Source: Deltaproteobacteria bacterium
Lineage (GTDB): Bacteria > Myxococcota_A > Polyangia > Fen-1088
DNA: 64,000 bases
Assembly: GCA_033763315.1 (NCBI GenBank)
Contig: JANRKS010000005.1
Coordinates: 205,840 to 269,839 of the forward strand
Reading direction: 5' to 3'
In this document: in pieces, positions 10,583 through 30,905 of the stretch
Layout of the letters: every line of letters starts with the position of its first letter
Numbering within the stretch: position 1 is the stretch's first letter
Notes under the pieces: generated by a model
The model's database searches: none
What the model was told of the DNA's origin: nothing
The model's input: the letters and a program-made list of their open reading frames with translations, nothing else
Position numbers and translations under genes: made by a program

Positions 10583-12070
10583 ATGATGCGGGCCGTGCCA
10601 CGAACAACCTCCGCATCGCTTCGCACGTTGTGGATCGTGCCATTGCTGTTGGGGCTCGCCGTGGGCTGTCACTGGTTCCGGCGGGCCACCATCCGCAGTT
10701 TTTTCAAAGATGGTGTCCCGGGCCCCGGGCCTGCGCTGCACCAGCCTCCTGCCGGAGAGCCCGGCCTTGCCCCCGTACGGCGTGTGCGCGTGGTGCTCAT
10801 TGATGGCTTAGGCTTAGCGTTTGCCCCACCAACGTTGCAGCACGTGTGCGCGCAAGGCCTCGACTTGGTGGTTGACAGTGGCTTTCCCACGGTGTCGTTG
10901 CCCGTGCAGCACGTGTTGTGGACGGGTCGCACGCAAGGGCAATCTGGCGTGCTCTACCGGATCGCCGCGTTGCCCAGTCCACCGGTCGATGCGTTGCCGT
11001 TGGCGGTGCCAGACGCGGTGGCGGTGGCAGAGTCACACAACGAGATCGTTCGCTCGTTTGGCTTTGCAAAGGTGCAGGCCCCTGTGGGCATCAAAGCCGT
11101 TTCTGAGGCGGACGAACGCTGGCGCAACGTGGGCTTCGCTGCCGCCGCACGGACGGCCATCCAAAGCGAAGCGCGTTTGGCTTTCGTTCACGTCTTGCGT
11201 GTAGACGAAGCGGGGCATGCCGAGGGCCCCGCCTCGGATCGATACGCCATGGCCGTTCGATCAGCCGACGAGCTGTTGCACGAGCTTGTCAGCGCGGATC
11301 CTGAGCGTGAGACAACGCGCTGGTTGATCCTCTCGGATCACGGGCATCGGCGGGACGGCGGCCATGCCGACGCAGAAGGATCGATTCGGTTGGTGCGTGC
11401 GTGTCTATTCGGCGCTGGCCTCACACACTCACGGGCCGCTCGGCCTATCCACCTTGTGGATGTGCACCGCGCGCTGGCGGATTCGTTGGGCGTCGCAACC
11501 ACCTCAATGGGGCGCCCGCTGCCATTTGCGCTTACGCAACCGGATCGCAACGCCACACTTCCGTCGCCACGTTGGCCCGCGTGGGTTTGGGCTTTGGCAA
11601 TGTTGGCTGGGGCGGCGTGGGCCACGTGGCGTTGCGCGCGGGATGTTCTGTTCGCCTATCCGTTTTGGTTCCCGGTTGCGTATGCGGTCGTGTGGCTCTC
11701 AAGAGGTGCAATCACCTTATCGAATCCCATCGTTTATCCACCGTTGGGTCTCACGGGGCTCACCGCGTTTTGGCCCGCGTTGGTTCTGTTGTGTGTGCAG
11801 GCGTGGTTCGCCTTGTCACGCCTGCCGGTGGTGCGTGTGGCATTTGCATTGTTGTCGCTGCCTGCGGCCGCTTTGGCCGCGGTGGCTGTGCTGTGCAATG
11901 CCTTGCCCGTGTGGCTTGGCGTGGCCGATCCACCGCCGCTTGTGCCATGGTGGTCTGCACACACAGCGGTGTTTGCCAGCGTGACGAGTGCAGCGTGCGT
12001 CGCCTTATCGGTGGGCGTGATTGCGCACGCCGTGTGGCCCACGCTAAGGCGCCGGCTGGGCGCCCGATAG
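10583..12070 (+). CDS. Alkaline-phosphatase-superfamily membrane enzyme: N-terminal NPP/type-I-phosphodiesterase-like catalytic domain plus C-terminal multi-TM domain (PigN/GPI-EtNP-transferase-like topology)
   Basis: 'VRVVLIDGLGLAFAP' (metal-ligand Asp), 'VVDSGFPTVSLPVQHVLWTG' (compare NPP 'FPTKTFPNHYSIVTG', Thr nucleophile), and 'WLILSDHGH' (DHGH metal site), followed by about 6 predicted TM helices from residue ~310. Confidence 0.55.
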   Translation: MMRAVPRTTSASLRTLWIVPLLLGLAVGCHWFRRATIRSFFKDGVPGPGPALHQPPAGEPGLAPVRRVRVVLIDGLGLAFAPPTLQHVCAQGLDLVVDSGFPTVSLPVQHVLWTGRTQGQSGVLYRIAALPSPPVDALPLAVPDAVAVAESHNEIVRSFGFAKVQAPVGIKAVSEADERWRNVGFAAAARTAIQSEARLAFVHVLRVDEAGHAEGPASDRYAMAVRSADELLHELVSADPERETTRWLILSDHGHRRDGGHADAEGSIRLVRACLFGAGLTHSRAARPIHLVDVHRALADSLGVATTSMGRPLPFALTQPDRNATLPSPRWPAWVWALAMLAGAAWATWRCARDVLFAYPFWFPVAYAVVWLSRGAITLSNPIVYPPLGLTGLTAFWPALVLLCVQAWFALSRLPVVRVAFALLSLPAAALAAVAVLCNALPVWLGVADPPPLVPWWSAHTAVFASVTSAACVALSVGVIAHAVWPTLRRRLGAR

Positions 12071-14450: not shown

Positions 14451-15302
14451 ATGTCGACCTCACGAACGCATCTCAAAACTATCCTGGCCGCTGCCTGTTT
14501 TGTTGGTTTCATTTCAGGGTGTGGCGCCGCCACCGGCGAGGTGGATACGGGGCAAAGCAAAGGTGGCAACGGAAGTGCCAGCGGAGGCAGTGGCGGTTTC
14601 AACGTTGATTTCGGCAACAACAACCAAGGTGGCGGCAACGTGGTGGGTGGCAACGGCTCGTCACTTGACAGCGGCGCTTGCGGGCAGATCGTCGCGACCA
14701 TCCGCGACTTTGGGGACAAACACCCCGACTTCGAGAATCCCATGCTGATTCACTCCCAAGTCATCAAGGGCATGGTGAAGGCAACGTTGGACAACGACGG
14801 CAAGCCGCAATACGTGGCAACGAACCCGATCTCGGCCACGAGCGCTCAAACTTTCTCCCAGTGGTACCGCGATGTGGGCGGTGCGAACGAAAAATTCTCG
14901 GTGGTGCTGCCTCTGCAAGAGACCACACCGGGGGTGTTCGTCTACGAGAACAACCTGTTCTTTCCGATCGATGGCAAAGGGTTCGGCAACCAAGGCCGGG
15001 ATCACAATTTCCACTTCACAACCGAAATCCGTGGCGGCTTTAAGTACCGTGGCGGCGAAAAGTTCACCTTCAAGGGCGATGACGACGTGTGGGTGTTCGT
15101 CAACGGCAAGCTCGCGCTTGATCTCGGCGGCATCCATGGTGCCGAGACCGCGGTGATCGATTTTGATGCACGCGCTGGCGAGCTGGGCCTCACGGTGGGC
15201 AAGGTTTATCCGTTGGTGGTGTTCCACGCCGAGCGCCACGTCACGCAATCGAATTTCCGCATGGAAACATCGATCGAGTGTCTGTCTGTGCCGGTGCTTT
15301 AG
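14451..15302 (+). CDS. Secreted lipoprotein with Gly/Ser-rich linker and C-terminal fibro-slime (PA14-like) domain
   Basis: Signal plus lipobox 'LAAACFVGFISGCG'; G/S/N-rich linker; 'NNLFFPIDGKGFGNQGRDHNFHFTTE...FTFKGDDDVWVFVNGKLALDLGGIHG...VYPLVVFHAERH' matches the fibro-slime domain family seen in Fibrobacter and myxobacteria. Confidence 0.55.
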   Translation: MSTSRTHLKTILAAACFVGFISGCGAATGEVDTGQSKGGNGSASGGSGGFNVDFGNNNQGGGNVVGGNGSSLDSGACGQIVATIRDFGDKHPDFENPMLIHSQVIKGMVKATLDNDGKPQYVATNPISATSAQTFSQWYRDVGGANEKFSVVLPLQETTPGVFVYENNLFFPIDGKGFGNQGRDHNFHFTTEIRGGFKYRGGEKFTFKGDDDVWVFVNGKLALDLGGIHGAETAVIDFDARAGELGLTVGKVYPLVVFHAERHVTQSNFRMETSIECLSVPVL

Positions 15303-15866: not shown

Positions 15867-18353
15867 ATGCTAGCGGCGACTATGCCCTTGCGTCCCGAAA
15901 TTCTAGCCCCCGCTGGCGACCGCGCGTCTTTGGAAGCTGCTGTGCGCGCGGGCGCCGATGCGGTTTATTTTGGGCTTCAATCTTTCAACGCGCGGGCCCG
16001 CGCCGAAAATTTCACCGAGCAAGATCTGCCCGAACTGATGCGCTTTCTGCACACCAATGGCACCAAAGGCTACGTTGCGCTGAACACGTTGGCGTTCGAC
16101 GCCGAACTGCCGGCCGTTGAGCAAGCCATTCGCGCGTGCGCGGCCGCGGGCGTGGACGCGGTGATTGTGCAAGATCTCGGTGTGGCGCGCCTCTGCCAGG
16201 CGGTCGCGCCGGCATTGCCTCTGCACGCCTCCACACAGATGACCTGCACAGATGCGGGCGCTGTCAATTACGCCAAGGCACTAGGTGCCAAGCGCGTTGT
16301 GTTGGCGCGCGAACTTTCCCTTGATGACATTGATGCCATCGGCAAAGCCACCGACGTGGAGCTTGAGGTGTTTGTGCACGGGGCCTTGTGTATTTCATAC
16401 TCCGGGCAGTGCTTAACAAGTGAAGCCTTAGGTGGACGCAGCGCCAACCGAGGGGCGTGCGCTCAGGCGTGCCGGTTGCCTTATGAGCTTGTGGTGGATG
16501 GGCAGCTGCGGCCCTTGGCTGATGTGGCGTATCTCTTATCGCCGCAAGATCTCGAAGCCAGCGCTGTGGTACCCAAGCTTGTGGAAATGGGCGTGAGGTC
16601 CTTCAAAATTGAGGGGCGCTTAAAAGGCCCACACTATGTGGCCGCCACCACGCGGCTTTACCGTGAGGCGATCGACGCCAGCGTTGGCCAAGGTGAAAAG
16701 CCCGCGGAGCGAACGCGGCAAGTGGCGTTGCAAACCTATACGCGTGGCTCTGATGTGGGGTTCTTCGAGGGGGTCAATCACCAACGTTTGGTGGAAGGCA
16801 AACTGTGCGAGCACCGCGGGTTGCAAGTGGGGCACGTGTTGGGTACGCAAAAACGTCGCCAGCATACGTATGTGCACACGCATGTGACGGCCGAGCTTCG
16901 GCGAGGCGATGGCCTGTTGATTGAAGGCGGCCGCGTGGGTGCTGGTGAAGTGGGCGGGCGCGTGTGGGGACTTGTTCGCAAGCACAAAGATGTGGAAGCG
17001 GCCGCGGCGGGAGAGGATGTGTTGGTGTGGTTGGGGCCTGACGTTGATGCCGCGTCGGTGCGCGCCGGCCGACGTGTGTTTCGCACGGATGATCCAGGCG
17101 CGAAGAAGGCCATTGAAGCGCAGCTTGCCCATGCACACACGCGCGCCATCGACATCGACGTGGTGGGCGAGCTTGGGCAGGCCTTCGTGTTTACCGCCAC
17201 GAACAGCAAAGGCGTGCGCGTGGTGGTCAACGGCGACACCCCCTTGCAAGTGGCCAAGCAGCGTCCATTGACGGTGGCGGCGCTGCGCGATCAGTTGGGG
17301 CGTTTGGGCGGCACGCCTTACCACCTCGGTGAACTGCGGGTGCAGATGCCCACAGACGCGCTGGTGCCCATCTCGTCGCTTAACCGCGCGCGGCGCGCGT
17401 TGGTGGAGGCGTTGACTGTCGCCTCGGAGCAAGCCTGGCCCACAACTTCCGTCACGTGCCGCTCGCTGCTGGAGCAGATGCCGCTGGCTGTGACTCGCAC
17501 GGCACCCGCAGGGATCTATTTTCTGTGCCGCTCACTCGCCCAAGCGCGTGCCGCTTTGGCTGCCGGCGCCGATGGCGTGTATCTCGATTTTCTTGAATTG
17601 ACGGGCACCGGCGAAGCGTTGCGTGCACTCAAGGGTGAAGGTGCGGCCTTTGTGGGCGTGGCACCGCCGCGCATTCGCAAACCTGGCGAAGACAAGATCG
17701 ATCGATTCTTGTTGGGCCTCGCACCCGACGCTGTGTTGGTGCGTGGCTTGGGCGCGCTTGCAGAATTGCGGCCGCAAAGCACGGGCCCGCTGTTCATCGG
17801 TGACTTCTCGTTGAACGTGGCCAACCACATGAGTGCAAAGACGGTGCTGTCAGCCGGGCTCTCTGCGTTCACGCCGTCATTCGATCTCGATGCAAAGCAG
17901 TTGCAGGCGTTGCTGGATCCCAGCCTAGCGGCGCACGCGGAGGTGGTGATCCACAACCCCATGCCGCTGTTCCACATGGAGCATTGTGTGATCGCCGCTT
18001 TGCTGTCGAAAGGCCGCGACCACCGCACGTGTGGCCGCCCATGCGAAACGCACAAAGTGTCGCTGCGTGACCGAGCGGGCATGGAACACCCGGTGGAGGC
18101 CGACGTGGGTTGTCGCAACACGGTTTTTCATGCTGCGGCTCAGAGCGCAGCGGCGTGGGCCGGGGCCTTGAAGAAAGCGGGGGTCGGACGGTTTCGGGTT
18201 GAACTTGTGCGCGAACCCCCCGCGGAAGTCGCCTCGTTGGTGCAGATTTATCGCGATTTGCTCGAAGGCAGGATGGACGCCACGGCTGCCCGCCACGTGC
18301 TGAAAACGGCTTCAGGCTATGGCGTTGTGAGTGGATCGTTGCGTGTGGTGTGA
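15867..18353 (+). CDS. Peptidase U32 family protein (collagenase-like, long form)
   Basis: N-terminal 'PEILAPAGDRASLEAAVRAGADAVYFGLQSFNARARAENF' and 'GTKGYVALNTLAFDAELPAVEQAIRACAAAGVDAVIVQDLGV' are canonical U32 motifs; long C-terminal extension. Confidence 0.85.
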   Translation: MLAATMPLRPEILAPAGDRASLEAAVRAGADAVYFGLQSFNARARAENFTEQDLPELMRFLHTNGTKGYVALNTLAFDAELPAVEQAIRACAAAGVDAVIVQDLGVARLCQAVAPALPLHASTQMTCTDAGAVNYAKALGAKRVVLARELSLDDIDAIGKATDVELEVFVHGALCISYSGQCLTSEALGGRSANRGACAQACRLPYELVVDGQLRPLADVAYLLSPQDLEASAVVPKLVEMGVRSFKIEGRLKGPHYVAATTRLYREAIDASVGQGEKPAERTRQVALQTYTRGSDVGFFEGVNHQRLVEGKLCEHRGLQVGHVLGTQKRRQHTYVHTHVTAELRRGDGLLIEGGRVGAGEVGGRVWGLVRKHKDVEAAAAGEDVLVWLGPDVDAASVRAGRRVFRTDDPGAKKAIEAQLAHAHTRAIDIDVVGELGQAFVFTATNSKGVRVVVNGDTPLQVAKQRPLTVAALRDQLGRLGGTPYHLGELRVQMPTDALVPISSLNRARRALVEALTVASEQAWPTTSVTCRSLLEQMPLAVTRTAPAGIYFLCRSLAQARAALAAGADGVYLDFLELTGTGEALRALKGEGAAFVGVAPPRIRKPGEDKIDRFLLGLAPDAVLVRGLGALAELRPQSTGPLFIGDFSLNVANHMSAKTVLSAGLSAFTPSFDLDAKQLQALLDPSLAAHAEVVIHNPMPLFHMEHCVIAALLSKGRDHRTCGRPCETHKVSLRDRAGMEHPVEADVGCRNTVFHAAAQSAAAWAGALKKAGVGRFRVELVREPPAEVASLVQIYRDLLEGRMDATAARHVLKTASGYGVVSGSLRVV

Positions 18354-18394
18354 ATGCGGCGCACGCCTTGCAATGCCTGCGCGAGGAGGCTCTC

Positions 18395-19057
18395 ATGACA
18401 AGAACGTCGTTTGCTTACGTGTGCTTCGCGTGCATATCTTGGGGCTGTGCGGCGGATCCGGCGCGCCGGGTTGATCCAGATGAACGCAGCGCCCTAGCCC
18501 ACCGACAAGAGGCGGCGCATGAAGCCCAAGCGGCGCATCACCATGAATCGCAGTATTCACCGAACGCGACGGAAGTGAGCCCATTTCGTGCGCGGTCGGG
18601 TGATGGTGATCTGACAGAAGCGACGGCGGTGGTGAACCCCACAGAAATCCATCTCACCCAGGCCCAGTGGCACAAAGCCCACGCTGAGGCGCACTTGAAG
18701 GCCGCGCAACAGCTTGAGCGTTTTGAAGACGAGGCTTGCAAGGGCACGCCTGTCAAAGAGCGCGCCGCTTGCCCGTTGCTGGGCCCCGTGACCCACATCC
18801 GCGATGTGGAGGGCGGTGTGGCCATCGACTTATCGCCGAAGGTCGACGCCGCGCAAGCCACGGCGGTCATGCGTTGCCATTACGCTTTTGCCCGCACGCG
18901 TGGGTTTGCTCCTGAAGCGGCCGCCTGCCCGCTTTACGTGCGAGGCCTAAACATTGAACAGGCCGGTGCCCACACGGTTGAGATCACCGCAAAAGATGCG
19001 GCAACGGTCAAACATGTGCGAGATTCTGCGCGCGCGGAAAGTGTTGCAGCTCCTTAG
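18395..19057 (+). CDS. Hypothetical secreted/lipoprotein, His-rich N-terminal region
   Basis: Strong RBS GAGGAGG 6 nt upstream of the ATG at 18395. 'FAYVCFACISWGCAADP' is signal/lipobox-like, then 'HRQEAAHEAQAAHHHESQY'. No known domain recognised. Confidence 0.35.
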   Translation: MTRTSFAYVCFACISWGCAADPARRVDPDERSALAHRQEAAHEAQAAHHHESQYSPNATEVSPFRARSGDGDLTEATAVVNPTEIHLTQAQWHKAHAEAHLKAAQQLERFEDEACKGTPVKERAACPLLGPVTHIRDVEGGVAIDLSPKVDAAQATAVMRCHYAFARTRGFAPEAAACPLYVRGLNIEQAGAHTVEITAKDAATVKHVRDSARAESVAAP

Positions 19058-19320: not shown

Positions 19321-22300
19321 ATGCGCAACGGTCTTCAGCGACGTTCTGGGGTATGCGGACAAACAAAATGGCTGGCGTTGTTGCCATGCGCGGCGGTGCT
19401 TGCCGCCTGTGGAGGTGGCGGCGGTACGGTCAGCGTTGACGGTGGCGGCACTGTCTTGCCACCGGGGGTGGATGCCAACGAGATGGCTCCCTCGCCAGAC
19501 GAAGATGCGAATACCGTGTCGGGGATGGACGCCGACGACCGGGAATCAGGTGGCGTGGTTTCAGCACAGCGCCGCCCTCAGATGCTATCGGTTCCGCCGT
19601 CATTTGTGTTGACCACCGAAGAGTATTCGTACACCCCGAAGCATTCGTATGTGGGTGACACACAATGGAATGTTGTGTCTGCACCGCAGGGCGTAGCGGT
19701 GCGTGAACGCCGAGTGGTGGCGGATCCGGGCACGTTGCCGGCAGGCGATCACATGATCGTGATCGAAGCCAACGTGAACGACACAGTCGTGCGCCAGAGT
19801 TTCCCGTTGACCGTGGCGGAACCCGTGCAGCGCGCGGCTCGCCTCGTGACCTCCGATGAGCCCGCGCAGGTTTCCGTGCAATCGGAAGTGAGCCGCGTGC
19901 GGCGCTCGGCCGTGTCCGTGCCCGCCGGGGCCGTGGAGAACGACACAATCGTTTCCATCAACGAAGTGAGCCGCGTGCCCGCGCGTGCTGCGTTTAGCGC
20001 AGGCGGCCCCGTGGTTGACTTCGGCCCTTCAGGCACTGTTTTCCGCAAGCGCGCGACGGTCACGTTGCCACTTGATTCCACGACGATGGACCCAAACAAA
20101 GTCGGCGCTTTCACCTACAACACCAAAGCCGGTCGATGGGAGCCGGTCGAAGTTTTGGCCATAGACAAGCCCAACAAGCTTGTGATCGCGAAGGCGTCGC
20201 ACTTCTCGATGTACATGGCCGCGGAATCTGCCTTCGCCTTGGAAAGTTCCCTTGGGCTCATGCCGAACCCGCCGCGCTGTGAAGGCAATGTGTCCGCACA
20301 AAGCGTGCTTAAGGCGACAGACTCAGATGTTCCCGCCGCCTCTGTGAACAATCTTTCCGACGAGATGAAGGCGCTTCTGCCCGCTTCGGTTGACGCCGAT
20401 ATGGATGGCGTTCCTGAGAAGCAGGCCTCCGTTCGTGATCTGCTGTTATCAGGAAAGTTCCGCGGCACCTTGCGCTTTGTTTATGTGACGTCGTTGTTTG
20501 AAGGGGAGGAAGCGCAACGCGTGGAAGTGGGCCAACAGGCTTTGGCCGCCTCGCTGTTCGTCGGCGACGATGGCAAAGCATTGGTGACGCTGACCGACGC
20601 CGTTGGCAACGTGCTTGAATCCAAGACCTTCGCCGATGTGGCGAACAACTTGGCTGCCATGTGGCCGCGCCTCACGGGCGCTTCGTTGCACGCGATCTTT
20701 GCAGATGCACCCAAGACGGGCCTCAGCCTCGGCGCGCGCGTGCACATGATCTATTACCCCGACAACCGCACCTCCGAAGCGTTCGGCGTGGCGGATCTGG
20801 GGCAATCGCTGGTTGAAACGTCGCCAGGCGTCAGTGTTGATCCCATGGCGCGTGCCAACGATTACGACATCGACTGTGACCACTTGGTCGGCCAGTTCGA
20901 TGGCGATGACAGCCGGTTCAGCCCCGTTGTGAGCGCGACGCCTGAGGACGTCACGTCGATGTTCGTTGGCGAAACAGTACGCCTTTCGGCCACTGTGTTG
21001 AACGTGAGCTCGACCCCCGAAGCACAGTGGGACGCCGGTGGTGGCACGCTGACGCCAGCCGCGGATGACCCGGACGCCCGCCAATTCACGGCCTCGCAGC
21101 CGGGGCGATACTCGATCGTGTTCAAGGCAAAGTCTGGTACAACCGCCTTGTCGCACACGTTCGTGGTGGACGTGTCTGCGTTGCCGATCACCAACACGCC
21201 GCCGCAATGTTCCCCGCTTGCCAGCGCTGACACGGGCGTGGTGGGTGAGGTGGTTGCACTCAAGGCCTTGGTGCAAGACAAAGAATCACCAGCGGATGCC
21301 CTGACCGTGGAATGGGGGCTTTTGGATCCAGGCGCCGATCCCTTATCAACAGTCGATGATAAGTTGGTTGCTACAGGTCTTGTTGAAGGCGAGGGCATTG
21401 TTGGTACTTTGTCGCTAAAGAACGAGGGCACCTTCACAGTGGCCTGCCGTGCGTTCGATGGCAAAGTTTGGGGGGCGCCAGGCACCACGCGGGTGGCAGC
21501 GGTGGCCAAGGGCGTGAACCAAGCACCTACCGATGTGTTTCTGTCGCCTTCCGTGGCTGACTTGCTCGTGGGGCAAACGGTTCAACTTGCCTTGCGGGCC
21601 AGCGATCCTGAAGGCAAGCCGTTGACGTTCGTTTGGAAAGCAACGCTTGGAACAACCGGCGAGGACGTGCCGCTGTTGGGCGAGCCGTTTGCCATCGTGG
21701 GTGGCAGTGCAGTGGTGTTCACTGGTTCGCAGGCTGGCGTGTTTGAGGTCCGCGCCGATGTGTCCGATGGCGAATTCAAGGGCGAAACCCAGGTGGCGAA
21801 GATCCTGGTCCGGGAGAAGGCGCCCTCCAAGGTCGATATGGACCAAGACGGATTCTCGGCGGGCACAGGACCGGGCGAAGACTGCAACGACGCCGACGCC
21901 AAGATCAACCCCGGCGCCTTCGATATCTGTGGCAACGACGTGGATGAAAACTGCGACGGCGTGGTGTCAAAGGATGATTGCGACCGAGATGGTTGGAAGG
22001 TTTGTGCGGCGGGCGCTTCCGAGGGATGCGACTGCAACGACGGCAACGCGCAGGTGAGTCCCGCGGCGCGTGAGTTGTGTGACGGCAAAGACAACAACTG
22101 TGACGGCAAGGTGGACGAGAACTTTGGCGTGGGCCTCGCCTGTACCGTGGGCCTGGGTGCGTGCCAGAACTCGGGCAAAATGCAGTGTGCGCCAGATGGC
22201 CAACGGGCTTTGTGCGCTGGTGCGCCATTGGCGGCCAAGCCAGAGATTTGTGACGACGTTGACAACGACTGCGACCTGCTCGTTGACGAGGACAATATCT

Positions 22301-24948
22301 GCATCAAAGAGACCGCAGGTGTGTTCTTCAAGTGCGCTGTGCCTACGGCCACAGACGATCCCACGAAGTTCGCCAACTGTGGCGTGCTGGCCAATGAAGG
22401 CTTTCAGTTGCGCGACGACGGCGCGATCGTTTTGCTTTCCGCGCCCAAGGGTGCGATGTACTTCGATCCAAAGGCGGCCGCTTACTGCTGGTACAACCAA
22501 GGCACGTGGCGGCTGCGCGACTCTAAGTCGATGCTCGTGAATTTGCCCGATAGCCAAGGGCAAACGTCGAACGATGTCGTGGACATCCTGTCGCGCAGCG
22601 TTGACCGAATGACGATCGGCTTTGCGAATCCAGGGCCGAATATGGCCAAGATCCAGGACAACCGCCGCATCGCCGAAAAGACCACAGGCAAGTGCGATTT
22701 TGATCCGCGTTGCTCTTCACGGCCAGAGGTGTGTAACGGCGTTGACGACGATTGCGATGGCAAGGTCGATGAGGATCTTTCATGCCCCGCTACGTGTGAC
22801 AAAGATGGCAGAGACAACAACAACAACGGCAAGGTTGACGAGCCAGGCGAGCCTTGTGCACCCGCTTGCGACATGGACAAGGTTGACAACAACGGCAACG
22901 GGGTTGTCGATGAGGCGGGTGAGCAGTGCTCTGCCCCACCTGTGGCGTGTGACAAAGATGGCAAGGACAACAATCTGGACGGCAAGGTCGACGAGGCCGG
23001 TGAGCCGTGTTCCCCGCCATGCGACAAGGATCGCATCGACAACAACGGCAATGGCGTGGTGGATGAGTCTGGTGAGGTGTGTGGCCCTGCCGCGGCTTGT
23101 GACAAAGATGGCAGGGACAACAACAACAACGGCAAGGTTGATGAACCAGGTGAGCCTTGTGCACCGGCTTGCGACATGGACAAGGTTGACAACAATGGCA
23201 ACGGCGTTGTGGACGAAACGGGCGAGGCCTGTGGCCCAGCGGTGGGTTGTGACAAGGACGGCCGCGACAACAATGGCGACGGCAAGATCGATGAGCCCGG
23301 CGAGCTATGCGGCGGAACGTCTGTGGAGTGCGACCGAGACGGGCGTGACAACAACAATGACGGCCGCATTGATGAACTGGGCGAGCCCTGCGCGCCGCCG
23401 TGCGACGCTGACAAAATCGACAACAACGGCAACGGCATGGTGGATGAGGCGGGCGAAATGTGCGGCCCCGTTACAGCCTGCGACAAAGACGGACGCGACA
23501 ACAACAACAACGGCAAGGTTGACGAGCCAGGCGAGCCTTGCGCACCCGCATGCGACATGGATCGCATAGACAACAATGGCAACGGCACTGTGGACGAAGC
23601 GGCCGAGCCATGTGGTCCCGCGGTTTCGTGTGACAAGGACGGCAAAGACAACAACGGCAACGGCATGGTGGATGAAGCTGGCGAAGCTTGTGGTCCCGCT
23701 GTCGCGTGCGAAAAGGACGGCCGCGATAACAACAACGACGGACGAGTTGATGAAGCCGGTGAGCCGTGTGCACCACCATGCGACGCTGACAAGATCGACA
23801 ACAACGGCAACGGCATGGTCGATGAAGCCGGCGAGGCTTGTGGCCCACCTGTTTCGTGTGACAAGGACGGCAAAGACAACAACGGCAACGGCATGGTGGA
23901 TGAAGCCGGCGAAGCTTGTGGTCCCGCTGTCTCATGCGAAAAGGACGGCCGCGATAACAACAACGACGGTCGAGTTGATGAAGCCGGTGAGCCGTGTGCA
24001 CCACCATGCGATGCTGACAAGATCGACAACAACAGCGACGGTCGAGTTGATGAAGCCGGCGAGGCTTGTGGCCCGGCCGTGTCGTGCGACAAGGACGGCC
24101 GCGACAACAACGGCAACGGGATGGTGGATGAAGCCGGCGAAGCTTGTGGCCCACCTGTGTCGTGCGACAAAGATGGTAAAGACAACAACGGCAACGGCAT
24201 GGTCGATGAAGCTGGCGAGCCGTGTTCTGGCCCTGTGAGCTGCGACGCTGACAAGATCGACAACAACGGCAACGGCATGGTCGATGAAATCGGCGAGGCC
24301 TGTGGTCCGGCCGTGTCGTGTGACAAGGACGGCAAAGACAACAACGGCAACGGCATGGTTGATGAGCCAGGCGAGCCGTGTGTTGGCCCACCTGTGTCGT
24401 GTGACAAGGACGGCAAAGACAACAACGGCAACGGCATGGTGGATGAAGCCGGCGAGCCCTGTTCTGGCCCTGTCACGTGCGAGGCGGATCGCATCGACAA
24501 CAACGGCAACGGGATGGTGGACGAACCGGGTGAGCCATGCAATGCGCCCCAATACTGTGACAAAGATGGCAAGGACAACAACGGCAACGGCATGGTCGAT
24601 GAAGCCGGTGAAGCTTGTGGTCCGGCCGTATCGTGCGACAAGGACGACAAAGACAACAACGGCAACGGCATGGTGGATGAGCCAGGCGAGCCGTGTGTTG
24701 GTCCACCCGTGTCGTGCGACAAAGATGGTAAAGACAACAACAACAACGGCATGGTCGATGAAGCCGGCGAGCCATGCAATGCGCCCCAATACTGCGACAA
24801 GGACGGCATCGACAACAACGGCAACGGGATGGTGGACGAACCTGGCGAGCCATGCAATTCGCCTCAATACTGCGACAAGGACGGCAAAGACAACAACGGC
24901 AACGGCACGGTCGATGAAGCCGGAGAGCTTTGCGGTCCCATCAGCTAA
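19321..24948 (+). CDS. Giant (1875 aa) surface lipoprotein: Ig-like/beta-sandwich N-terminal half, canonical MopE-type metal-binding motifs, then 28 tandem Cys-Asp-Asn-rich MopE-like/Ca-binding-like modules
   Basis: Signal plus lipobox 'WLALLPCAAVLAACGGGGG'. Canonical PF11617-like units 'CNDADAKINPGAFDICGNDVDENCDG', 'CDGKDNNCDGKVDE' and 'CDDVDNDCDLLVDED' (aa ~840-1000). From nt 22795 there are 28 repeats of 'CDKDG[KR]DNN[GN]NGMVDE[AP]GE[AP]C' alternating with 'CD[AM]DKIDNNGNG' variants. Confidence 0.8.
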   Translation: MRNGLQRRSGVCGQTKWLALLPCAAVLAACGGGGGTVSVDGGGTVLPPGVDANEMAPSPDEDANTVSGMDADDRESGGVVSAQRRPQMLSVPPSFVLTTEEYSYTPKHSYVGDTQWNVVSAPQGVAVRERRVVADPGTLPAGDHMIVIEANVNDTVVRQSFPLTVAEPVQRAARLVTSDEPAQVSVQSEVSRVRRSAVSVPAGAVENDTIVSINEVSRVPARAAFSAGGPVVDFGPSGTVFRKRATVTLPLDSTTMDPNKVGAFTYNTKAGRWEPVEVLAIDKPNKLVIAKASHFSMYMAAESAFALESSLGLMPNPPRCEGNVSAQSVLKATDSDVPAASVNNLSDEMKALLPASVDADMDGVPEKQASVRDLLLSGKFRGTLRFVYVTSLFEGEEAQRVEVGQQALAASLFVGDDGKALVTLTDAVGNVLESKTFADVANNLAAMWPRLTGASLHAIFADAPKTGLSLGARVHMIYYPDNRTSEAFGVADLGQSLVETSPGVSVDPMARANDYDIDCDHLVGQFDGDDSRFSPVVSATPEDVTSMFVGETVRLSATVLNVSSTPEAQWDAGGGTLTPAADDPDARQFTASQPGRYSIVFKAKSGTTALSHTFVVDVSALPITNTPPQCSPLASADTGVVGEVVALKALVQDKESPADALTVEWGLLDPGADPLSTVDDKLVATGLVEGEGIVGTLSLKNEGTFTVACRAFDGKVWGAPGTTRVAAVAKGVNQAPTDVFLSPSVADLLVGQTVQLALRASDPEGKPLTFVWKATLGTTGEDVPLLGEPFAIVGGSAVVFTGSQAGVFEVRADVSDGEFKGETQVAKILVREKAPSKVDMDQDGFSAGTGPGEDCNDADAKINPGAFDICGNDVDENCDGVVSKDDCDRDGWKVCAAGASEGCDCNDGNAQVSPAARELCDGKDNNCDGKVDENFGVGLACTVGLGACQNSGKMQCAPDGQRALCAGAPLAAKPEICDDVDNDCDLLVDEDNICIKETAGVFFKCAVPTATDDPTKFANCGVLANEGFQLRDDGAIVLLSAPKGAMYFDPKAAAYCWYNQGTWRLRDSKSMLVNLPDSQGQTSNDVVDILSRSVDRMTIGFANPGPNMAKIQDNRRIAEKTTGKCDFDPRCSSRPEVCNGVDDDCDGKVDEDLSCPATCDKDGRDNNNNGKVDEPGEPCAPACDMDKVDNNGNGVVDEAGEQCSAPPVACDKDGKDNNLDGKVDEAGEPCSPPCDKDRIDNNGNGVVDESGEVCGPAAACDKDGRDNNNNGKVDEPGEPCAPACDMDKVDNNGNGVVDETGEACGPAVGCDKDGRDNNGDGKIDEPGELCGGTSVECDRDGRDNNNDGRIDELGEPCAPPCDADKIDNNGNGMVDEAGEMCGPVTACDKDGRDNNNNGKVDEPGEPCAPACDMDRIDNNGNGTVDEAAEPCGPAVSCDKDGKDNNGNGMVDEAGEACGPAVACEKDGRDNNNDGRVDEAGEPCAPPCDADKIDNNGNGMVDEAGEACGPPVSCDKDGKDNNGNGMVDEAGEACGPAVSCEKDGRDNNNDGRVDEAGEPCAPPCDADKIDNNSDGRVDEAGEACGPAVSCDKDGRDNNGNGMVDEAGEACGPPVSCDKDGKDNNGNGMVDEAGEPCSGPVSCDADKIDNNGNGMVDEIGEACGPAVSCDKDGKDNNGNGMVDEPGEPCVGPPVSCDKDGKDNNGNGMVDEAGEPCSGPVTCEADRIDNNGNGMVDEPGEPCNAPQYCDKDGKDNNGNGMVDEAGEACGPAVSCDKDDKDNNGNGMVDEPGEPCVGPPVSCDKDGKDNNNNGMVDEAGEPCNAPQYCDKDGIDNNGNGMVDEPGEPCNSPQYCDKDGKDNNGNGTVDEAGELCGPIS
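22795..24945 (+). repeat. Coding tandem repeat array, about 28 units of 66-75 bp (higher-order ~132-141-bp AB periodicity), with near-identical copies toward the 3' end
   Basis: Repeated DNA strings such as 'gacaaggacggcaaagacaacaacggcaacggcatggtggatgaagccggcga' recur many times in frame. The reverse strand yields long artefactual ORFs. Confidence 0.9.
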
Positions 24949-25646: not shown

Positions 25647-28600
25647 CTACCGCACGTCGTCTGGCTGGCGTAACGCAGCGAGCAGCTGCTCGATCTTCTG
25701 CTCCAACGCACGACGATCTTCTAGGCTGCGAGCCGCCGCGCGCACAAGCGGGATCAGCGTGCGTTCAACGATCGCCACTTGCTGCCCCAACGCTTCTTCA
25801 ACGCCGCGAGGCGCCTCGGTTTGCACGGTGAGATTCACGGGGCGCTTCTCCATCGCATGCAAGATGGCGTCGAGGCGGCCCAGGTGATCGGCCAGCCAAT
25901 GCGGCAACCCATCGCCATCTTTCTTTTCCGTGGCGGTGGTTGTGGCACGCGGCTTTTCAAGCGCGCTGCGAATGCCTTGCAGTTGGCCGCCCAGATCTGA
26001 AAGTTGCCCCGTGACCCGGGTGACGGGATCGTCTTCGGCTCCACCCAGTTTTTTCACGCGAACAAATTCGTGCTTGATGTCGTTCCACCGCTTGGCTTGC
26101 GTGGGCGATAGGGTGCCGCGCAACTCCGCCAGCTTTAGCAAATTGGTTTCCGCGCCCGTGGTCAACGTTTGTGCCTCACCCACGTAGTGATCCTCAATCA
26201 GCCGATCCAGCTCCTCGGGCGTCATCGCGCCCACAACCTTCTCGGCAAGCTTGCTCATGTTGCGGTAACTGCCTTGCAGCTTGAACGGAGGCTCCGTGCG
26301 GAACTTATCGTCGGTGGAAGCAGACGCGATGTATTGCTGGTTCACCCGCAGCAGGGTTTTCTGCACCACCATCAGGCGCTCAAGCACGGCCTTGATGTCC
26401 GCAAGTTCCACCGCCGCATAACCGTGGCTTAGATCCGTGGTGGCGAGCACCTCGCCTTGCGCCATGCGGATCAATTTATAAATGTCGGCTTGGTCGCGCG
26501 TGGCAAGCGGCGCCAAAACGGGGTTTGATGTGATTGCGTTTTCAATGTAGCTCAGTGCAAAAACATCGTCTTTGCCCGAGAGAATGTCACCCAGATTGTA
26601 GGTGTCGGCACGGTTCGCGAGCATGTCGGGAATTTGGAAGCGATCTCCCGATTCGGTGTAGGGGTTGCCCGCCATCACCACGCAAAAACGTTTGCCGCGC
26701 ATATCATACGTGCGCGTGCGGCCCTTCCACACGCCTTCGATGCGGCGTTGAGCGTCGCACAGCGAAATGAACTTTTGCAGTAGCTCCGGGTGCGTGTGCT
26801 GGATGTCGTCGAGATAAAGCATCACGTTGTTGCCCATCTCCAACGCCAAGTTGATCTTCTCCACCTCTTGGCGCGCGGTGGCGTTCGGCGCTTCTTCGGG
26901 ATCGAGCGATCGCACCTCGTGCCCAAGCGAAGGGCCATTGACCTTCATGAACACCAGACCCAGGCGGCTGGCCACATACTCCATCAACGTGGTTTTGCCG
27001 TATCCCGGTGGGGAGATCACCAGCAGCAAACCCATCAGATCGGTGCGCTTCTTTTCGCCGGCGGCACCCATCTGTTTGGCGAGGTTGTCGCCCACGAGCG
27101 GCAAATAGACTTCGTTGACCAAGCGGTTGCGCACGAAAGACGTCAACACGCGCGGTTTGAACTCGTCTAGCCGCAACCGCGTACGCTCGCGTGCAAGCAA
27201 GGCCTGCCTTTGTTGCTTGTAATCGGCAAAGCCCGGCACGCGCTCGCTCACAAACCGTTGCAGCCGTGGCAAGAATTCATCAAGGCGCAGGCGTAAGGTG
27301 CCGTTCTCGATGCGCGGGTGGTTGCCCAACAAACCCGTGACTTCCGTCATCGTCCGCGCTGTCGAGGTGCCGCGGTCGAGCGTGCGTTCGGTGAGCAAGA
27401 GCGCCGCGACCTCTGGTGCAAAATGGGTTGCGTGGGCGTCTTGGTCGCCGGGGTTGGGGCGCGCCACGAACGCATCGATCCACGCGCGTGCCACGGCCAA
27501 GCGCGCCGCCAAATCGTCTTGCAGTGAGCGAAGGTCTTCTTCGAAGGCCAAACGTTGACCGCTGCGATCCAAATGCGCGGCGAAAGCCTCGCGAATGCTA
27601 AACGCCTCATGACTGCACACGAACCGAGGTTGCGTGGCCGCCAACTCTTCGATGAGGTACCTCGCTGCTGCAGGTGCCACGTCGGTCGCGCCGCGATCAG
27701 GCAGTTTCGCGGCGAAGGTGGCCACGGCGGTTTGCAGCTCTTGCGCCAGCTCCTCGTGCGCGCGCGTGGGACCCAACAGCGCGCGCAACCGTGCCAGGCT
27801 TCCGGCCTGCCGGTGCCACTTGTCGAGCGCCGAGGCTTCCACGCCTTCGGCCCAAAACAACGTGGCCAACGCCCGCGCCTGCGGCGAAAACCGCAGCAAC
27901 CCGGCCGCTTGTCGCAGATCCAGCAGCTTTTCGAGAATCGCCGTGGCATCCGCATCGTGCACGCCGCGTTCGTAGCCCTCGTCGTAACGTGAGGCCGCCG
28001 CTTTGCGCACGTGCTCTTGCAGCCCGCCTGGCGACAACCGCGCCTCTTGCAGCGCTGCAACAGACAGATTGCCTTGCCCCGCTTCCGCCGCAAACAGCAT
28101 ACTCGCCGCCAGGTATTCGCCGCGGTAGACATCGCTGGTCTCCGAAGCCAACGTTTGGCTCCAGTAGGGGCGCGTGGCGGCGAACGCCGTGTCCGTCACC
28201 GCTTCACGATAGTCAGTCCCGGTGACGGCAAGGGCCATCGCTTCACCTTCAGCCTGCGGCACCAGCGTCAGGTCCAGCGGCTGCGTGTTGACCGTGAACT
28301 TGTGTTTGCCTAGACGAATGACATTGTCGCCGTCTTCGTAAAGATCCAGCTTGTCCTTCAGGCCACGCAGCGCTTCTTGTTGGGCGCTTTTGACCTTCGA
28401 GCCGAGTTCGTCGGCGCGCGTGCCTTCGCCCAGCTCAACCAGGCGCACAGCGAGCTCGCGCACCTTCAAGATCATCGGGTCCGCGGCGAAGTAACCGTTC
28501 AATTCGTCCACGCTCTTGAGCGTTTGTGCGCGCCGACCCACGCCCTGCAAGATGCGTTCGGCGGCGGACATCAAATTCGCCGCGCGCCGTTGCCGCTCGT

Positions 28601-30905
28601 CGAGGAGACGCTGCTTTTTTTGGTTTAGCGCTTCGTAAACCTCTTCGCGCTTTCCCGCGAGCACCGTCAGGTATTCGTCGAATTCAGAGAAGCGCGACTC
28701 CAGCTCCTCCATCTGCACCATCAAACGCGAAAGCTGCTCGTCACACGCTTGCGGTGTTTCGGCCATGCCCACCGCGCTGCTCACGCTCTGTCCGAACAGT
28801 TTGAATTGCGCCGCGAACTCAGCCTCGCCTTCGCCTTTGAGCAAGGTTTTGCGACGCGCTTCCACCGTGGCGCGCAGACGCCCCCACTGCCCAAAGGCTT
28901 CCGAGATGCGCTCTAAAATATTGGTGCGCACGGTGGGATCCTCCACCTTCAACCCACCCACCACTTCTGAAAGCACGTTGAGGCCGGCGTTGAGGGCCTC
29001 CGCTTTTTCGGCCAGTGGCGCCAACGCGCGCGTCTTTTCGACGCTGGCCACCTGATCCACAAGCTGATTGATCTCCGCCAACACAGGCGTGAACGCATCG
29101 TCTTTCAGCAGGAATCCAACGGCGGCGCCGCTGACACGTTCGAACGCTTGCACGCTGGCGGCTTCAAGCGCTTCCACCCCCTGCACCTGTATATACCGCA
29201 CCTCTTTGAGGCCGATCAGGTGACCACGTTGGGCGCGTAACTTTCCAAGCGCCTCCATAAACGGGGCCACGGTGGTCCAGGTATCGGGCCGCAACGTTTT
29301 GAACAGCGCTTCTTGTTGCTCCTGCGCTTCGCTGAATTGTTTCTGCGCCTGCGCCTGCAGCGCCTGCACCTTCTCGAATTCATCCACCACCAGCTCGGCG
29401 GTGTGGCGAATGGCCTGCAGCGGCGCCAGCAAGTGGCTGCCATCGCTGAGCAGCTGGGCGTCGCCCAACCAGTGGTGCAGATCCATCGTTCGCCCCACGT
29501 GCGCGATGAGATCTTCATAGATGCGGCGGGTGGGCTGCGTGTCCTGCACCAAGCGGCGCACCGTCAAGGCATCGGAAATGCCGCGCACCAAAGCGGCGTT
29601 GCCGATCTTGCCCAACGGCCCCGTGACTTTCGGGGCGCGCGCTGCGGCTTCATCGGAAAGAAACGGCGTGGTCCACACTTGCATCGGATGCACGCGCGTG
29701 GGCTCTTGCGATTCCGCGCGGAACACCATCATGCGGCCGTCTTCGAACAAGCTGTAACCGTGGCACCGAATGGGCGTCGATACGCGTTTTTCGATCAGGT
29801 TGTAGACCAGCAGGATGTAAAGCCCATCGTGCCGCCGGTGAAACACATAAAGCACGTCTTCGCCATTCGGCGCGCGCACGCTGCGCTCGAACTCAAGATC
29901 GGAAAAATCGCCCTCAAAGACCTTGTGTTGGCCGTCTTGCAGGTAATAGCCGCCCGGAAAGATCACGCCGTGATCTTCAGGCAGTTCGACGCACGAATGC
30001 CCGATGGCGTCGATGCGCACCACTTTTTGCGATCGCGTGGCAAACACCAAATAGCGAAACGCCTTTTCATTAAACGGCAGGACCTTCAGCAGCACCAACG
30101 TGCCGACTTTTGCGTAGAAGATGTCGGCGTCGTCCAACGCTTGGCGTGGATCGTCCACCGGCTCGCTGTAAATGCCTTCGCCGTCTTCGGTGTTGTTTTC
30201 CACCTTCACGGTTAACGTGCCGCTCACGGTCTCCACGAACAGCGTGTTCAGAATGTTCGCGTGCGGGTGCGTGCCACTGACGTGTTGATCGCGCGTCACC
30301 TCCACCCATTCGAAGGTGTGTTGGGGCGGAAAAACAAAATCACGCTCACCCCGGTTGTCGATGTAGGAAGGCACGCCATCACGGCCCACGCCCCAGCGAA
30401 ACACGCGCAGATCCGTGGCGTTGGGCCCCATGCGGAACACGGCCAAGAGCTTGGTGTCGGTGCGCGATAACTTCGTGAGCCGCGCGTGCTTGTAATACTT
30501 ATAAAGTTCGGCAAAGTCGCTTGCGAACCGCGGCTCGCGAATCAGCGCGGCGCTGGCGTCGTTGCTGGCCACAGGCACCAGATCCAGCTCGCCTTCCACG
30601 GGCTCGAAGCGATGCACGCTGAACACGTCGGCCACGGTGGTTTCGGTCTTGAGGCCCAAAAACACGTTGTAGCCAAACAGCAAATCGTTGCCCACCGTTA
30701 CGATGTCGGCGGGCACACAGTTGTTTTCGGTGCGCGCGCGGTGGGTGGAAGCCAGCACCAATTCAGTGCTGCCAAAAGCCTGCTTACGCGCTTGATTCAA
30801 CGCCTCGGCGATGCGGCCAAGCGTGCCCGCCTGTTCCACCAAGCGGGCGCGGATCACCTCATAGCCATCGCCGATGGCGGCGGGCGGTTGTTCTGATGCG
30901 GCCAT
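25647..30905 (-). CDS. Giant (1752 aa) multidomain protein with an AAA_5 (MoxR/dynein-related) ATPase domain; uncharacterised beta-rich N-terminal domain, long alpha-helical/coiled-coil middle and C-terminal regions
   Basis: Walker A 'LLLVISPPGYGKTTLMEYV', Walker B 'NVMLYLDDIQH', and 'FCVVMAGNPYTESGDRFQIPDMLANRADTY' (AAA_5 sensor/Arg-finger region) at about aa 1290-1480 (nt ~26460-27040). The first ~480 aa are beta-rich; several hundred residues are heptad-like. The ATG lies 12 nt after the flotillin stop. Confidence 0.8.
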   Translation of the reverse strand: MAASEQPPAAIGDGYEVIRARLVEQAGTLGRIAEALNQARKQAFGSTELVLASTHRARTENNCVPADIVTVGNDLLFGYNVFLGLKTETTVADVFSVHRFEPVEGELDLVPVASNDASAALIREPRFASDFAELYKYYKHARLTKLSRTDTKLLAVFRMGPNATDLRVFRWGVGRDGVPSYIDNRGERDFVFPPQHTFEWVEVTRDQHVSGTHPHANILNTLFVETVSGTLTVKVENNTEDGEGIYSEPVDDPRQALDDADIFYAKVGTLVLLKVLPFNEKAFRYLVFATRSQKVVRIDAIGHSCVELPEDHGVIFPGGYYLQDGQHKVFEGDFSDLEFERSVRAPNGEDVLYVFHRRHDGLYILLVYNLIEKRVSTPIRCHGYSLFEDGRMMVFRAESQEPTRVHPMQVWTTPFLSDEAAARAPKVTGPLGKIGNAALVRGISDALTVRRLVQDTQPTRRIYEDLIAHVGRTMDLHHWLGDAQLLSDGSHLLAPLQAIRHTAELVVDEFEKVQALQAQAQKQFSEAQEQQEALFKTLRPDTWTTVAPFMEALGKLRAQRGHLIGLKEVRYIQVQGVEALEAASVQAFERVSGAAVGFLLKDDAFTPVLAEINQLVDQVASVEKTRALAPLAEKAEALNAGLNVLSEVVGGLKVEDPTVRTNILERISEAFGQWGRLRATVEARRKTLLKGEGEAEFAAQFKLFGQSVSSAVGMAETPQACDEQLSRLMVQMEELESRFSEFDEYLTVLAGKREEVYEALNQKKQRLLDERQRRAANLMSAAERILQGVGRRAQTLKSVDELNGYFAADPMILKVRELAVRLVELGEGTRADELGSKVKSAQQEALRGLKDKLDLYEDGDNVIRLGKHKFTVNTQPLDLTLVPQAEGEAMALAVTGTDYREAVTDTAFAATRPYWSQTLASETSDVYRGEYLAASMLFAAEAGQGNLSVAALQEARLSPGGLQEHVRKAAASRYDEGYERGVHDADATAILEKLLDLRQAAGLLRFSPQARALATLFWAEGVEASALDKWHRQAGSLARLRALLGPTRAHEELAQELQTAVATFAAKLPDRGATDVAPAAARYLIEELAATQPRFVCSHEAFSIREAFAAHLDRSGQRLAFEEDLRSLQDDLAARLAVARAWIDAFVARPNPGDQDAHATHFAPEVAALLLTERTLDRGTSTARTMTEVTGLLGNHPRIENGTLRLRLDEFLPRLQRFVSERVPGFADYKQQRQALLARERTRLRLDEFKPRVLTSFVRNRLVNEVYLPLVGDNLAKQMGAAGEKKRTDLMGLLLVISPPGYGKTTLMEYVASRLGLVFMKVNGPSLGHEVRSLDPEEAPNATARQEVEKINLALEMGNNVMLYLDDIQHTHPELLQKFISLCDAQRRIEGVWKGRTRTYDMRGKRFCVVMAGNPYTESGDRFQIPDMLANRADTYNLGDILSGKDDVFALSYIENAITSNPVLAPLATRDQADIYKLIRMAQGEVLATTDLSHGYAAVELADIKAVLERLMVVQKTLLRVNQQYIASASTDDKFRTEPPFKLQGSYRNMSKLAEKVVGAMTPEELDRLIEDHYVGEAQTLTTGAETNLLKLAELRGTLSPTQAKRWNDIKHEFVRVKKLGGAEDDPVTRVTGQLSDLGGQLQGIRSALEKPRATTTATEKKDGDGLPHWLADHLGRLDAILHAMEKRPVNLTVQTEAPRGVEEALGQQVAIVERTLIPLVRAAARSLEDRRALEQKIEQLLAALRQPDDVR

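Follow-up and report, generated by a model that had tools for sequence, protein, structure and literature searches.

Thrombospondin type 3 (T3) repeats lack secondary structure, yet fold around Ca2+. In the C-rich domain of teneurin-4, solved at 1.5 A, three Ca2+ ions are bound, and sites I and II are described as T3-like (PMC9058538). Tandem extenders rigidified by Ca2+ are established for RTX adhesins (PMC4083281, PMC7493085, PMC5466336). On the bacterial side, Tucker et al. 2012 aligned the consensus of Pfam family PF11617 (Cu-binding_MopE, putative metal-binding motif; 30 positions, gathering cut-off 27 bits) to the teneurin Cys-rich region (PMC3278476); the searchable literature holds no experimental characterization of any PF11617 array. 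Here, we analyzed a window of 64,000 nucleotides (contig JANRKS010000005.1, positions 205,840 to 269,839) from a Deltaproteobacteria bacterium of the class Polyangia. An uninterrupted open reading frame (ORF) with an ATG start, 19321..24948 (+), encodes a 1875-residue protein that ends in an array of 28 small tandem units. On balance, we read these units as a disulfide-stapled, Ca2+-loaded acidic rod predicted to form the distal end of a lipid-anchored envelope protein.

Comparison of the units revealed the following features: (i) the tandem units number exactly 28, are 24, 26 or 27 residues long, and contain two Cys each; (ii) the units share a 21-residue core, C-x2-D-x2-D-N-N-x-[ND]-G-x-[VI]-D-E-x-G-E-x-C; and (iii) positions C1, D4, D7, N8, N9, G12, D15, E16, E19, and C21 are invariant in 28 of 28 units. 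An earlier note, made from the sequence alone, had described a 1875-residue lipoprotein with 28 two-Cys units; the ORF, the count, and the consensus are borne out, and a lipobox pattern is matched at Cys30. Its description of the array as perfectly periodic was too strong, given the three unit lengths and an alternation of A and B units that is confined to about the first 11. Tandem Repeats Finder (TRF) reports periods of 78, 150, 228, 315, and 381 bp over the array. The composition is extreme: the isoelectric point (pI) is 4.05, acidic residues number 176 vs 56 basic ones, D, E, N, G, and P account for 434 of 717 residues, and His, Trp, and Phe are absent altogether. The Cys total is 56, with 3-6 residues between C21 and C1 of the next unit. 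Position 13 is variable (M/K/R/V/T) and holds Met in 14 of the 28 units.

The unit lines up with a crystallographic Ca2+ site. The ligands in teneurin-4 are E835, D840, D843, N844, D845, D847, D851, D854, and D856, together with the carbonyls of A837, K842, and L849, and C838-C857 is one of three disulfides (PMC9058538). The sequence of PDB 7PLP in this stretch is C838-G-D840-S-K842-D843-N844-D845-G-D847-G-L849-V-D851-C852-M-D854-P-D856-C857. Unit positions 4-15 correspond to teneurin-4 residues 840-851 with no gap, in a register that is set by the DN[DN]G[DN]G core and is a pattern match rather than a statistical one. The six positions of side-chain ligands (D4, D7, N8, N9, N/D11, and D15) are invariably D or N in the 55 units of three orthologues; positions 5, 6, 10, and 13, which are backbone-ligand or non-ligand positions in the teneurin register, vary, and the structural Gly12 and V/I14 are conserved. 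C21 stands six residues past D15, as C857 stands six past D851, and this match in spacing suggests an intra-unit C1-C21 disulfide.

Two further comparisons point to Ca2+ loops. A profile of the unit searched against PDB sequences gave six weak matches (E 0.22-7.6), all of which place DNNGNGxVD on EF-hand or dockerin Ca2+ loops. The pattern Dx[DN]x[DN]GxxDE fits 28 of 28 units. Dx[DN]xDG is a validated Ca2+-binding linear motif (Rigden et al. 2011, PMC3123361); its strict form is found in 6 of 28 units, and with Asn allowed at position 5 it fits all 28, always followed by x-x-D-E. The Ca2+-loop character noticed earlier is supported by the register of D4 to D15 with the teneurin-4 site and by the uniform identity of the six PDB matches.

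Relatives of the whole protein are few. A search of 5.8 billion clustered proteins turned up a single full relative, P0002 (1612 residues, 61% identity), whose locus, L001, has the same order of U32 peptidase, small ORF, and array gene. Word-indexed homology searches matched only the protein itself, P0002, and proteins with canonical motifs. An exhaustive HMMER scan of the repeat region against 1.84 billion representatives yielded only 240 matches at E <= 1e-3, among them a fragment of a third orthologue, P0006, with the same downstream synteny. A scan of metagenome contigs with the peptide pattern SHFSMYM added one N-terminal fragment, L082, and no relatives of the N-terminal part of the protein were found in species-representative genomes.

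The three orthologues, each from an independent assembly, contain 28, 17, and 10 units. Most units are closest to other units of their own array (25/28, 16/17, and 6/10, respectively), the outcome of concerted evolution by unequal recombination. Copy-number change is thus demonstrated between lineages, that is, species or genera, and not between strains. The variation in copy number foreseen by the earlier note stands at this level; its hypervariability by slippage among strains does not, the units being mostly diverged. Likewise, the near-identity over 66-75 bp that it ascribed to the 3' units applies to a few pairs only: unit pairs 12/15, 13/16, 14/20, and 21/25 are 95-98% identical over 63 bp (the cores of 12/15 and 13/16 reach 98%), and identity between unit cores is mostly 60-90%. 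The close pairs go back to a three-unit duplication of 228 bp, the two copies of which are 93% identical.

The invariant residues have outlived this divergence. At nine invariant positions (G12 excluded), 32% of unit-pair codon comparisons differ, and every difference is synonymous. Codon use also differs between equivalent residues, with TGC/TGT at 19:9 in C1 and 9:19 in C21, and GAC/GAT at 19:9 in D4 and 7:21 in D15. Synonymous differences at invariant residues show that the invariance is upheld by purifying selection and not by recent copying. The presence of this array type in syntenic orthologues and the retention of its residues despite synonymous divergence place its occurrence far beyond chance. 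Anatomy, conservation, selection, copy-number differences, and the register match are all direct observations.

To place the unit among known repeats, we collected 155 proteins, nearly all from the exhaustive HMMER scan. At least three canonical Cys-containing PF11617 motifs are present in 106 of the 155, and at least three two-Cys units without the middle Cys in 6, namely the three orthologues, P0008, P0025, and P0040. In its 274 residues, P0008 (L084:3364-4188), from an organism with 69% GC, combines a signal peptide, an LPLTG motif, and seven units (CETDGVDNNGNGYIDENGEPC...) that make up nearly the whole protein; a sortase gene lies directly downstream. By these signals, an unrelated lineage uses the unit type in a protein anchored to the cell wall. 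P0025 and P0040 contain CGDGIDNNGDGQIDEGC units with poly-Pro linkers, which in P0040 lie between a phosphoesterase and a discoidin domain. In P0019 and P0094, teneurin-style units (CDDGIDNNGNGLVDCDDPxC) connect a trypsin-like protease to the membrane anchor at the C-terminus, and pilus-associated and pseudopilin-like proteins carry Cys-free DGxDNDGDGxIDEPGE loops. The loop itself is widespread, the two-Cys unit type is rare without being unique, and lipoproteins with a long array of it are rare. The earlier impression that the array had not been characterized is right for the long array, which is both uncharacterized and rare, and needs amending for the unit, which recurs in P0008, P0025, and P0040.

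From these comparisons we infer Ca2+ binding, a disulfide pattern, rigidity, a surface location, and a biological role, in the following model. The gene product would belong to the envelope of a Polyangia-related myxobacterium, held there by a lipid anchor, and its C-terminal 717 residues would be a chain of 28 small Ca2+-binding loops with no globular domains. In each loop, D4-x-x-D7-N8-N9-x-[N/D]11-G12-x-[V/I]14-D15 together with E16 and E19 would wrap one or perhaps two Ca2+ ions in a teneurin- or T3-like manner, a C1-C21 disulfide would close the loop, and short Pro/Gly/Ala linkers would connect the units. With roughly 28-56 Ca2+ ions bound, the net charge of about -120 would be neutralized in large part, so that the loaded array may be a stiff, protease-resistant acidic rod and the unloaded one floppy. 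Array length shifts over evolutionary time via unequal recombination between units. The likeliest role would be structural, with the array as a Ca2+-dependent fiber or as a spacer, either in the matrix or in the cell envelope, as suggested by the architecture of P0019, P0094, and P0040, where units link domains or an anchor. On the other hand, P0008 and the absence of a head domain in the present protein suggest that the array itself can be the functional part, in adhesion or Ca2+ capture.

Several observations weigh against the Ca2+-loaded rod. Ca2+ binding is a prediction from a sequence pattern. The unit profile gave no significant link to a solved Ca2+ site (best E 0.22 against PDB sequences), and teneurin was not retrieved by it at E <= 10. 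The teneurin Asp ligands D845 and D847 are Asn in most units, which makes the site less negative; D854 and D856 are without equivalents, their positions being taken by G18 and P20; and the first Cys is one residue farther from D4 than in teneurin. The loop Gly is replaced by Ala in 10 of the 17 units of P0002 by position count (11 by reading the sequences). Two established signatures are absent from all 28 units: the PROSITE EF-hand pattern PS00018, since loop position 12 is Gly18, and the T3 12-mer DxDxDGxxDxxD. The T3 family PF02412 gave no match at E <= 10 to the array or its fragments. An AlphaFold2 model of a 5-unit fragment, built on a shallow pseudo-alignment of 32 registers of the array itself, has a predicted local distance difference test (pLDDT) score of 47, no helices, and almost no secondary structure, so disorder is possible. 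Finally, no head domain follows the array, which itself makes up the distal end of the protein, and such an arrangement is unusual for a pure spacer.

In the main rival reading, the array would be a polyanionic tail that is intrinsically disordered and lacks discrete ion sites; it would bind cations non-specifically and serve as an entropic bristle, as a charge layer, or as a polymer that nucleates minerals. Low pLDDT, near absence of secondary structure, the pI of 4.05 with its dominance of D, E, N, G, and P, and the lack of any significant match to solved folds in PDB sequence searches are what such a tail would give. However, ten invariant positions under purifying selection, exact spacing, two invariant Cys, and a conserved hydrophobic V/I14 are more than a non-specific polyanion would require, nor would it reproduce the spacing of a crystallographic Ca2+ site. 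Low pLDDT is expected of a model made without ions, as T3 repeats have no secondary structure either, and the alignment behind it was shallow and drawn from the array. We therefore regard a disordered tail as unlikely.

A second set of alternatives involves the N-terminal part of the protein, where a ZU5-like region ends in the motif H294-F-S296. We took a ZU5 domain to be a match to Pfam PF00791 of at least 21 bits with H-F-S at its C-terminal end, the cut falling between F and S. The present protein scores 13.6 bits (aa ~199-250) and P0002 17 bits, both under the cut-off; a transitive link exists through P0155, which is related to the present protein at a pairwise E = 1e-11 and itself passes ZU5 at 31 bits. 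HFS (aa 294-296) is kept in P0002. PIDD and Nup98 cleave themselves at an H-F-S motif, and CARD8/NLRP1 at the related SF/S (PMC3210808). H294-F-S296 is thus a candidate autoproteolysis site, which we offer as a lead. Cleavage there, if active, would part a lipid-anchored N-terminal stump from a 1579-residue array-bearing fragment, which could possibly be held non-covalently and be shed. An AlphaFold2 model of aa 85-520 from a 2-sequence alignment (pLDDT 30) was unusable. A homology search with aa 175-520 (19843..20880) missed both the query's own protein and P0002, so its negatives are doubtful.

Extending the rod model in this direction, the 26-residue two-Cys unit might be a minimal, self-sufficient bacterial version of the Ca2+ "wire" fold of teneurin C-rich and T3 repeats, and the array a Ca2+-switchable rod of ~700 residues that does the protein's work as a high-capacity fiber or adhesive and, tethered to a lipid-anchored stump, can be shed via ZU5-type HFS self-cleavage; we consider this extension improbable on balance. 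A rival reading, in which the array is a Ca2+-dependent adhesive that binds a specific ligand (prey or own polysaccharide, or a mineral surface) through Ca2+ bridges, and is set free or uncovered once the ZU5-like region has cut itself at HFS, shares the Ca2+-loop mechanism with the rod model and differs in role alone. It would account for an array at the distal end with no head domain beyond it, for P0008, which is essentially a sortase-anchored array and so functional in itself, for the combination of PKD and cadherin-like domains with a ZU5-like region and conserved HFS, and for the lineage-specific partner gene upstream (18350..19057). On the opposite side, no ligand-binding family was matched in the protein, ZU5 is below threshold, and surface exposure is an assumption; we rate such an adhesive as rather improbable, below the disordered tail.

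The name of the family suggests a third alternative, in which the array binds copper or another transition metal via its Cys pairs, in a metallothionein-like CxxxC arrangement between units, or via Met13. The whole protein passes PF11617, a family named for MopE, and the array offers 56 Cys, closely spaced across unit boundaries, and Met13 in half of the units. All four PF11617 stretches, however, lie outside the array. Fragments of 3, 8, and 9 units reach 14.2-16.2 bits against PF11617 and align to profile positions 18-30 only; fragments of 11 units, 17 units, and the whole array gave no match. In MopE, the Cu(I) site is formed by Kyn130, His132, and His203, and the crystal model starts at Gly47 (PMC3423442). 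The canonical-motif region of the present protein aligns with MopE* (PDB 2VOV) over residues 6-44 only (E = 0.11). The PF11617 stretch of MopE thus belongs to the disordered N-terminus, outside and away from the Cu site. The array contains no His or Trp, so a MopE-type copper site cannot form; position 13 is variable and equivalent to a backbone-carbonyl ligand in teneurin; and Cys are expected to be oxidized in an exported lipoprotein, as the homologous teneurin Cys are disulfide-bonded. CaCl2, by contrast, protects MopE against proteolysis (PMC3423442). The array is probably unrelated to copper despite its label, and a transition-metal reading, to which the "MopE-like" modules and the "metal sink" of the earlier note point, has very little chance of being correct.

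An assembly artefact, in the array as such or in its copy number, or a decaying pseudogene is scarcely credible even for a metagenome-assembled genome (MAG) with its misassembly-prone tandem repeats: exact direct repeats are 59 bp long at most and k-mers of at least 77 nt occur only once, so ordinary short reads can resolve the array and the collapse once feared carries a low risk, the frame is open for 5.6 kb, the orthologues in three independent assemblies are syntenic and keep both array and stop codon intact, and the units are under purifying selection.

Some database matches to the array were set aside. Pfam "Eas hydrophobin" scores 30.2 bits (cut-off 27) over 24241..24945 (aa 1641-1875) and 17.8 bits on a longer fragment, and looks like a repeat-summing artefact; the pI of 4.05 and the lack of hydrophobic residues also speak against it. 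Such a match could mislead automatic annotation. Protamine_like, IPP-2, and zf-MYND matches are compositional noise. A multi-core precursor of ribosomally synthesized and post-translationally modified peptides was rejected as well, since a 1158-residue lipoprotein N-terminus is no leader and no maturase genes lie nearby.

Upstream of the array, the protein has the layout of a large exported lipoprotein (Table 1). The NCBI entry, on a 385-kb contig, reads "MAG: MopE-related protein [Deltaproteobacteria bacterium]". We required a basic n-region, a hydrophobic h-region, and a lipobox [LVI][ASTVI][GAS]C within the first ~35 residues. The N-terminus, MRNGLQRRSGVCGQTKWLALLPCAAVLAAC, matches the PROSITE-type lipobox pattern at Cys30, with GGGGG directly after it; basic residues R2, R7, R8, and K16 precede WLALLPCAAV-LAAC30, as the pattern for a bacterial lipoprotein demands, and the orthologue P0002 retains both the lipobox and the Gly run (LAGC and GGGG). 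The product is accordingly a predicted lipoprotein; the surface location given in the earlier note is an assumption. The Ig-like domains that it mentioned correspond to matches to PKD (E = 2.8e-7, 30.9 bits, two stretches, the best at aa ~750-817) and to bacterial cadherin-like Cadherin_4 (E = 3e-4, aa ~623-706) within aa 520-860. Canonical motifs number four rather than three, with three at aa 850-1010 and one at aa 1133-1151. The residues between them, aa ~1011-1124 (about 110), match no family. The protein terminates directly after unit 28, with neither a C-terminal sorting signal nor a head domain. An NCBIfam scan found no meaningful family, a search of the whole protein against PDB sequences gave chance Ig matches only, and a promoter and terminator scan around the gene found nothing informative.

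Table 1. Positions, in the coordinates of the window, of the array protein's parts and of neighboring features.
Feature	Positions	Strand	Evidence
Complete ORF, 1875 aa	19321..24948	+	PF11617 passed by whole protein, 69.4 bits, 4 stretches
Signal peptide and lipobox L-A-A-C (putative lipidated Cys30), then Gly-rich linker	19321..19410 (aa 1-30)	+	PROSITE-type pattern; P0002
ZU5-like region, aa ~185-296, H294-F-S296 at end (nt 20200..20208)	19873..20208	+	Pfam ZU5 below threshold
Ig-like region: PKD and bacterial cadherin-like, aa 520-860	20878..21900	+	Pfam
Cys-rich region with three canonical PF11617 (MopE-type) motifs, aa 850-1010	21868..22350	+	84.6 bits, 3 stretches
Fourth canonical PF11617 motif CNGVDDDCDGKVDE, aa 1133-1151, just N-terminal of array	22717..22773	+	28.7 bits, profile positions 12-30
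28 tandem two-Cys units, aa 1159-1875	22795..24945	+	Sequence, TRF
Most recent higher-order duplication, units 12-14 vs 15-17	23629..24084	+	Two 228-bp blocks, 93% identical
Small ORF, 235 aa, no family match, contains His and Cys (three-His run)	18350..19057	+	tblastn
Sulfatase-family protein	12044..14230	-	
PA14-domain protein	14451..15302	+	
Two-domain U32 peptidase (DUF3656)	15867..18353	+	
Segment of about 11 kb	25041..~36200		
1752-aa DUF3686/DUF7902/AAA ATPase	25647..30905	-	
721-aa orphan	30918..33083	-	
412-aa protein with thrombospondin type 3 repeat	33685..34923	+	PF02412, E = 8e-8

The upstream neighborhood is shared with the orthologue: as in L001, a PA14-domain protein comes first, then a two-domain U32 peptidase, then the small ORF. 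The first 4 bp of the small ORF lie within the U32 gene, and the pair may thus be translated together. The peptidase places the organism in Myxococcota, class Polyangia, with at most 64% identity to any species representative. In 80 Polyangia loci around the syntenic U32 peptidase, units of the array type were not found. The small ORF was matched by tblastn only in L001 and L082, both array-gene loci, and in 0 of the 80 other Polyangia U32 loci; the small ORF and the array gene are, by this distribution, a lineage-specific pair. Farther upstream, the sulfatase-family protein has one canonical PF11617 motif ahead of its catalytic domain, an example in which the motif is, from its position, an accessory module of an exported enzyme.

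Downstream of the array gene, about 11 kb of the window has no counterpart in L001 and L083, the orthologous loci, in which the array gene is followed by three small genes and then the ammonium transporter. The segment encodes the large ATPase, the orphan next to it, and a 190-residue ORF; PADLOC defence models matched none of these, the large ATPase pair included. The window also encodes the PF02412 protein, so the classical T3 Ca2+ repeat is used in this genome as well. An Rfam scan of the window found no RNA family.

In Myxococcota and other bacteria, exported proteins commonly carry PF11617 motifs, annotated as "Cu-binding" or "MopE-related". The present array is a rare form of this common, uncharacterized repeat, with Ca2+ loops as its likely nature and a transition-metal role unlikely. 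With 28 stripped-down units, each consisting of two Cys and a D/N/E constellation, it is the cleanest test object for the motif. If the units bind Ca2+ as teneurin does, (i) thousands of "copper-binding" annotations would have to be re-read as Ca2+-stabilized structural repeats, (ii) the proposed bacterial ancestry of the teneurin C-rich domain would gain structural footing, and (iii) a compact, genetically tunable Ca2+-dependent rod would become available for protein engineering. If the shed Ca2+ fiber is also real, it would represent a new class of bacterial envelope fiber, and the function of PF11617 would be Ca2+ and not Cu. If the units bind no Ca2+, the protein is merely another repetitive orphan from a MAG.

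The array can be compared with several known systems. Canonical PF11617 arrays of Myxococcota and other bacteria ("MopE-related protein") are common, and four canonical motifs occur in the present protein too; the array units correspond to the C-terminal part of the motif (profile positions 18-30), without its N-terminal half and its middle Cys (DNDCDG becoming DNNGNG). MopE/CorA of methanotrophs has an N-terminal PF11617 motif in common with the present protein and is, in the case of MopE, stabilized by Ca2+, whereas its Cu(I) site and the MopE fold are absent here. Human teneurin-4's C-rich domain (PDB 7PLP; Meijer et al. 2022, PMC9058538) shares with the units the core D-x-K-D-N-[DN]-G-[DN]-G-[LM]-V-D, an identical spacing of side-chain ligands in 840-851, and a loop-closing Cys six residues past the last Asp. 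Teneurin, however, has only one such domain, of 38 residues, in which six Cys form disulfides 1-3, 2-5, and 4-6, three Ca2+ ions are bound, and the tail is conotoxin-like, whereas the array has 28 tandem units with two Cys each and E16 and E19 instead of D854 and D856. The T3 repeats of TSP-1 (PDB 1UX6), which the teneurin sites resemble, form a tandem, Asp-rich, disulfide-stapled "wire" around many Ca2+ ions; their Cys pattern and repeat length differ from those of the array, which has Asn for Asp. The extenders of giant adhesins (MpIBP region II, SiiE, and other RTX proteins) are likewise long tandem cell-surface arrays with Ca2+-dependent stiffness and a copy number that varies among species. 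Their repeats are Ig-like beta-sandwiches of ~100 residues with Ca2+ at the linkers, secreted by a type I secretion system and projecting a ligand-binding head, whereas the array described here consists of loops of ~26 residues on a predicted lipoprotein and is itself the free C-terminal end.

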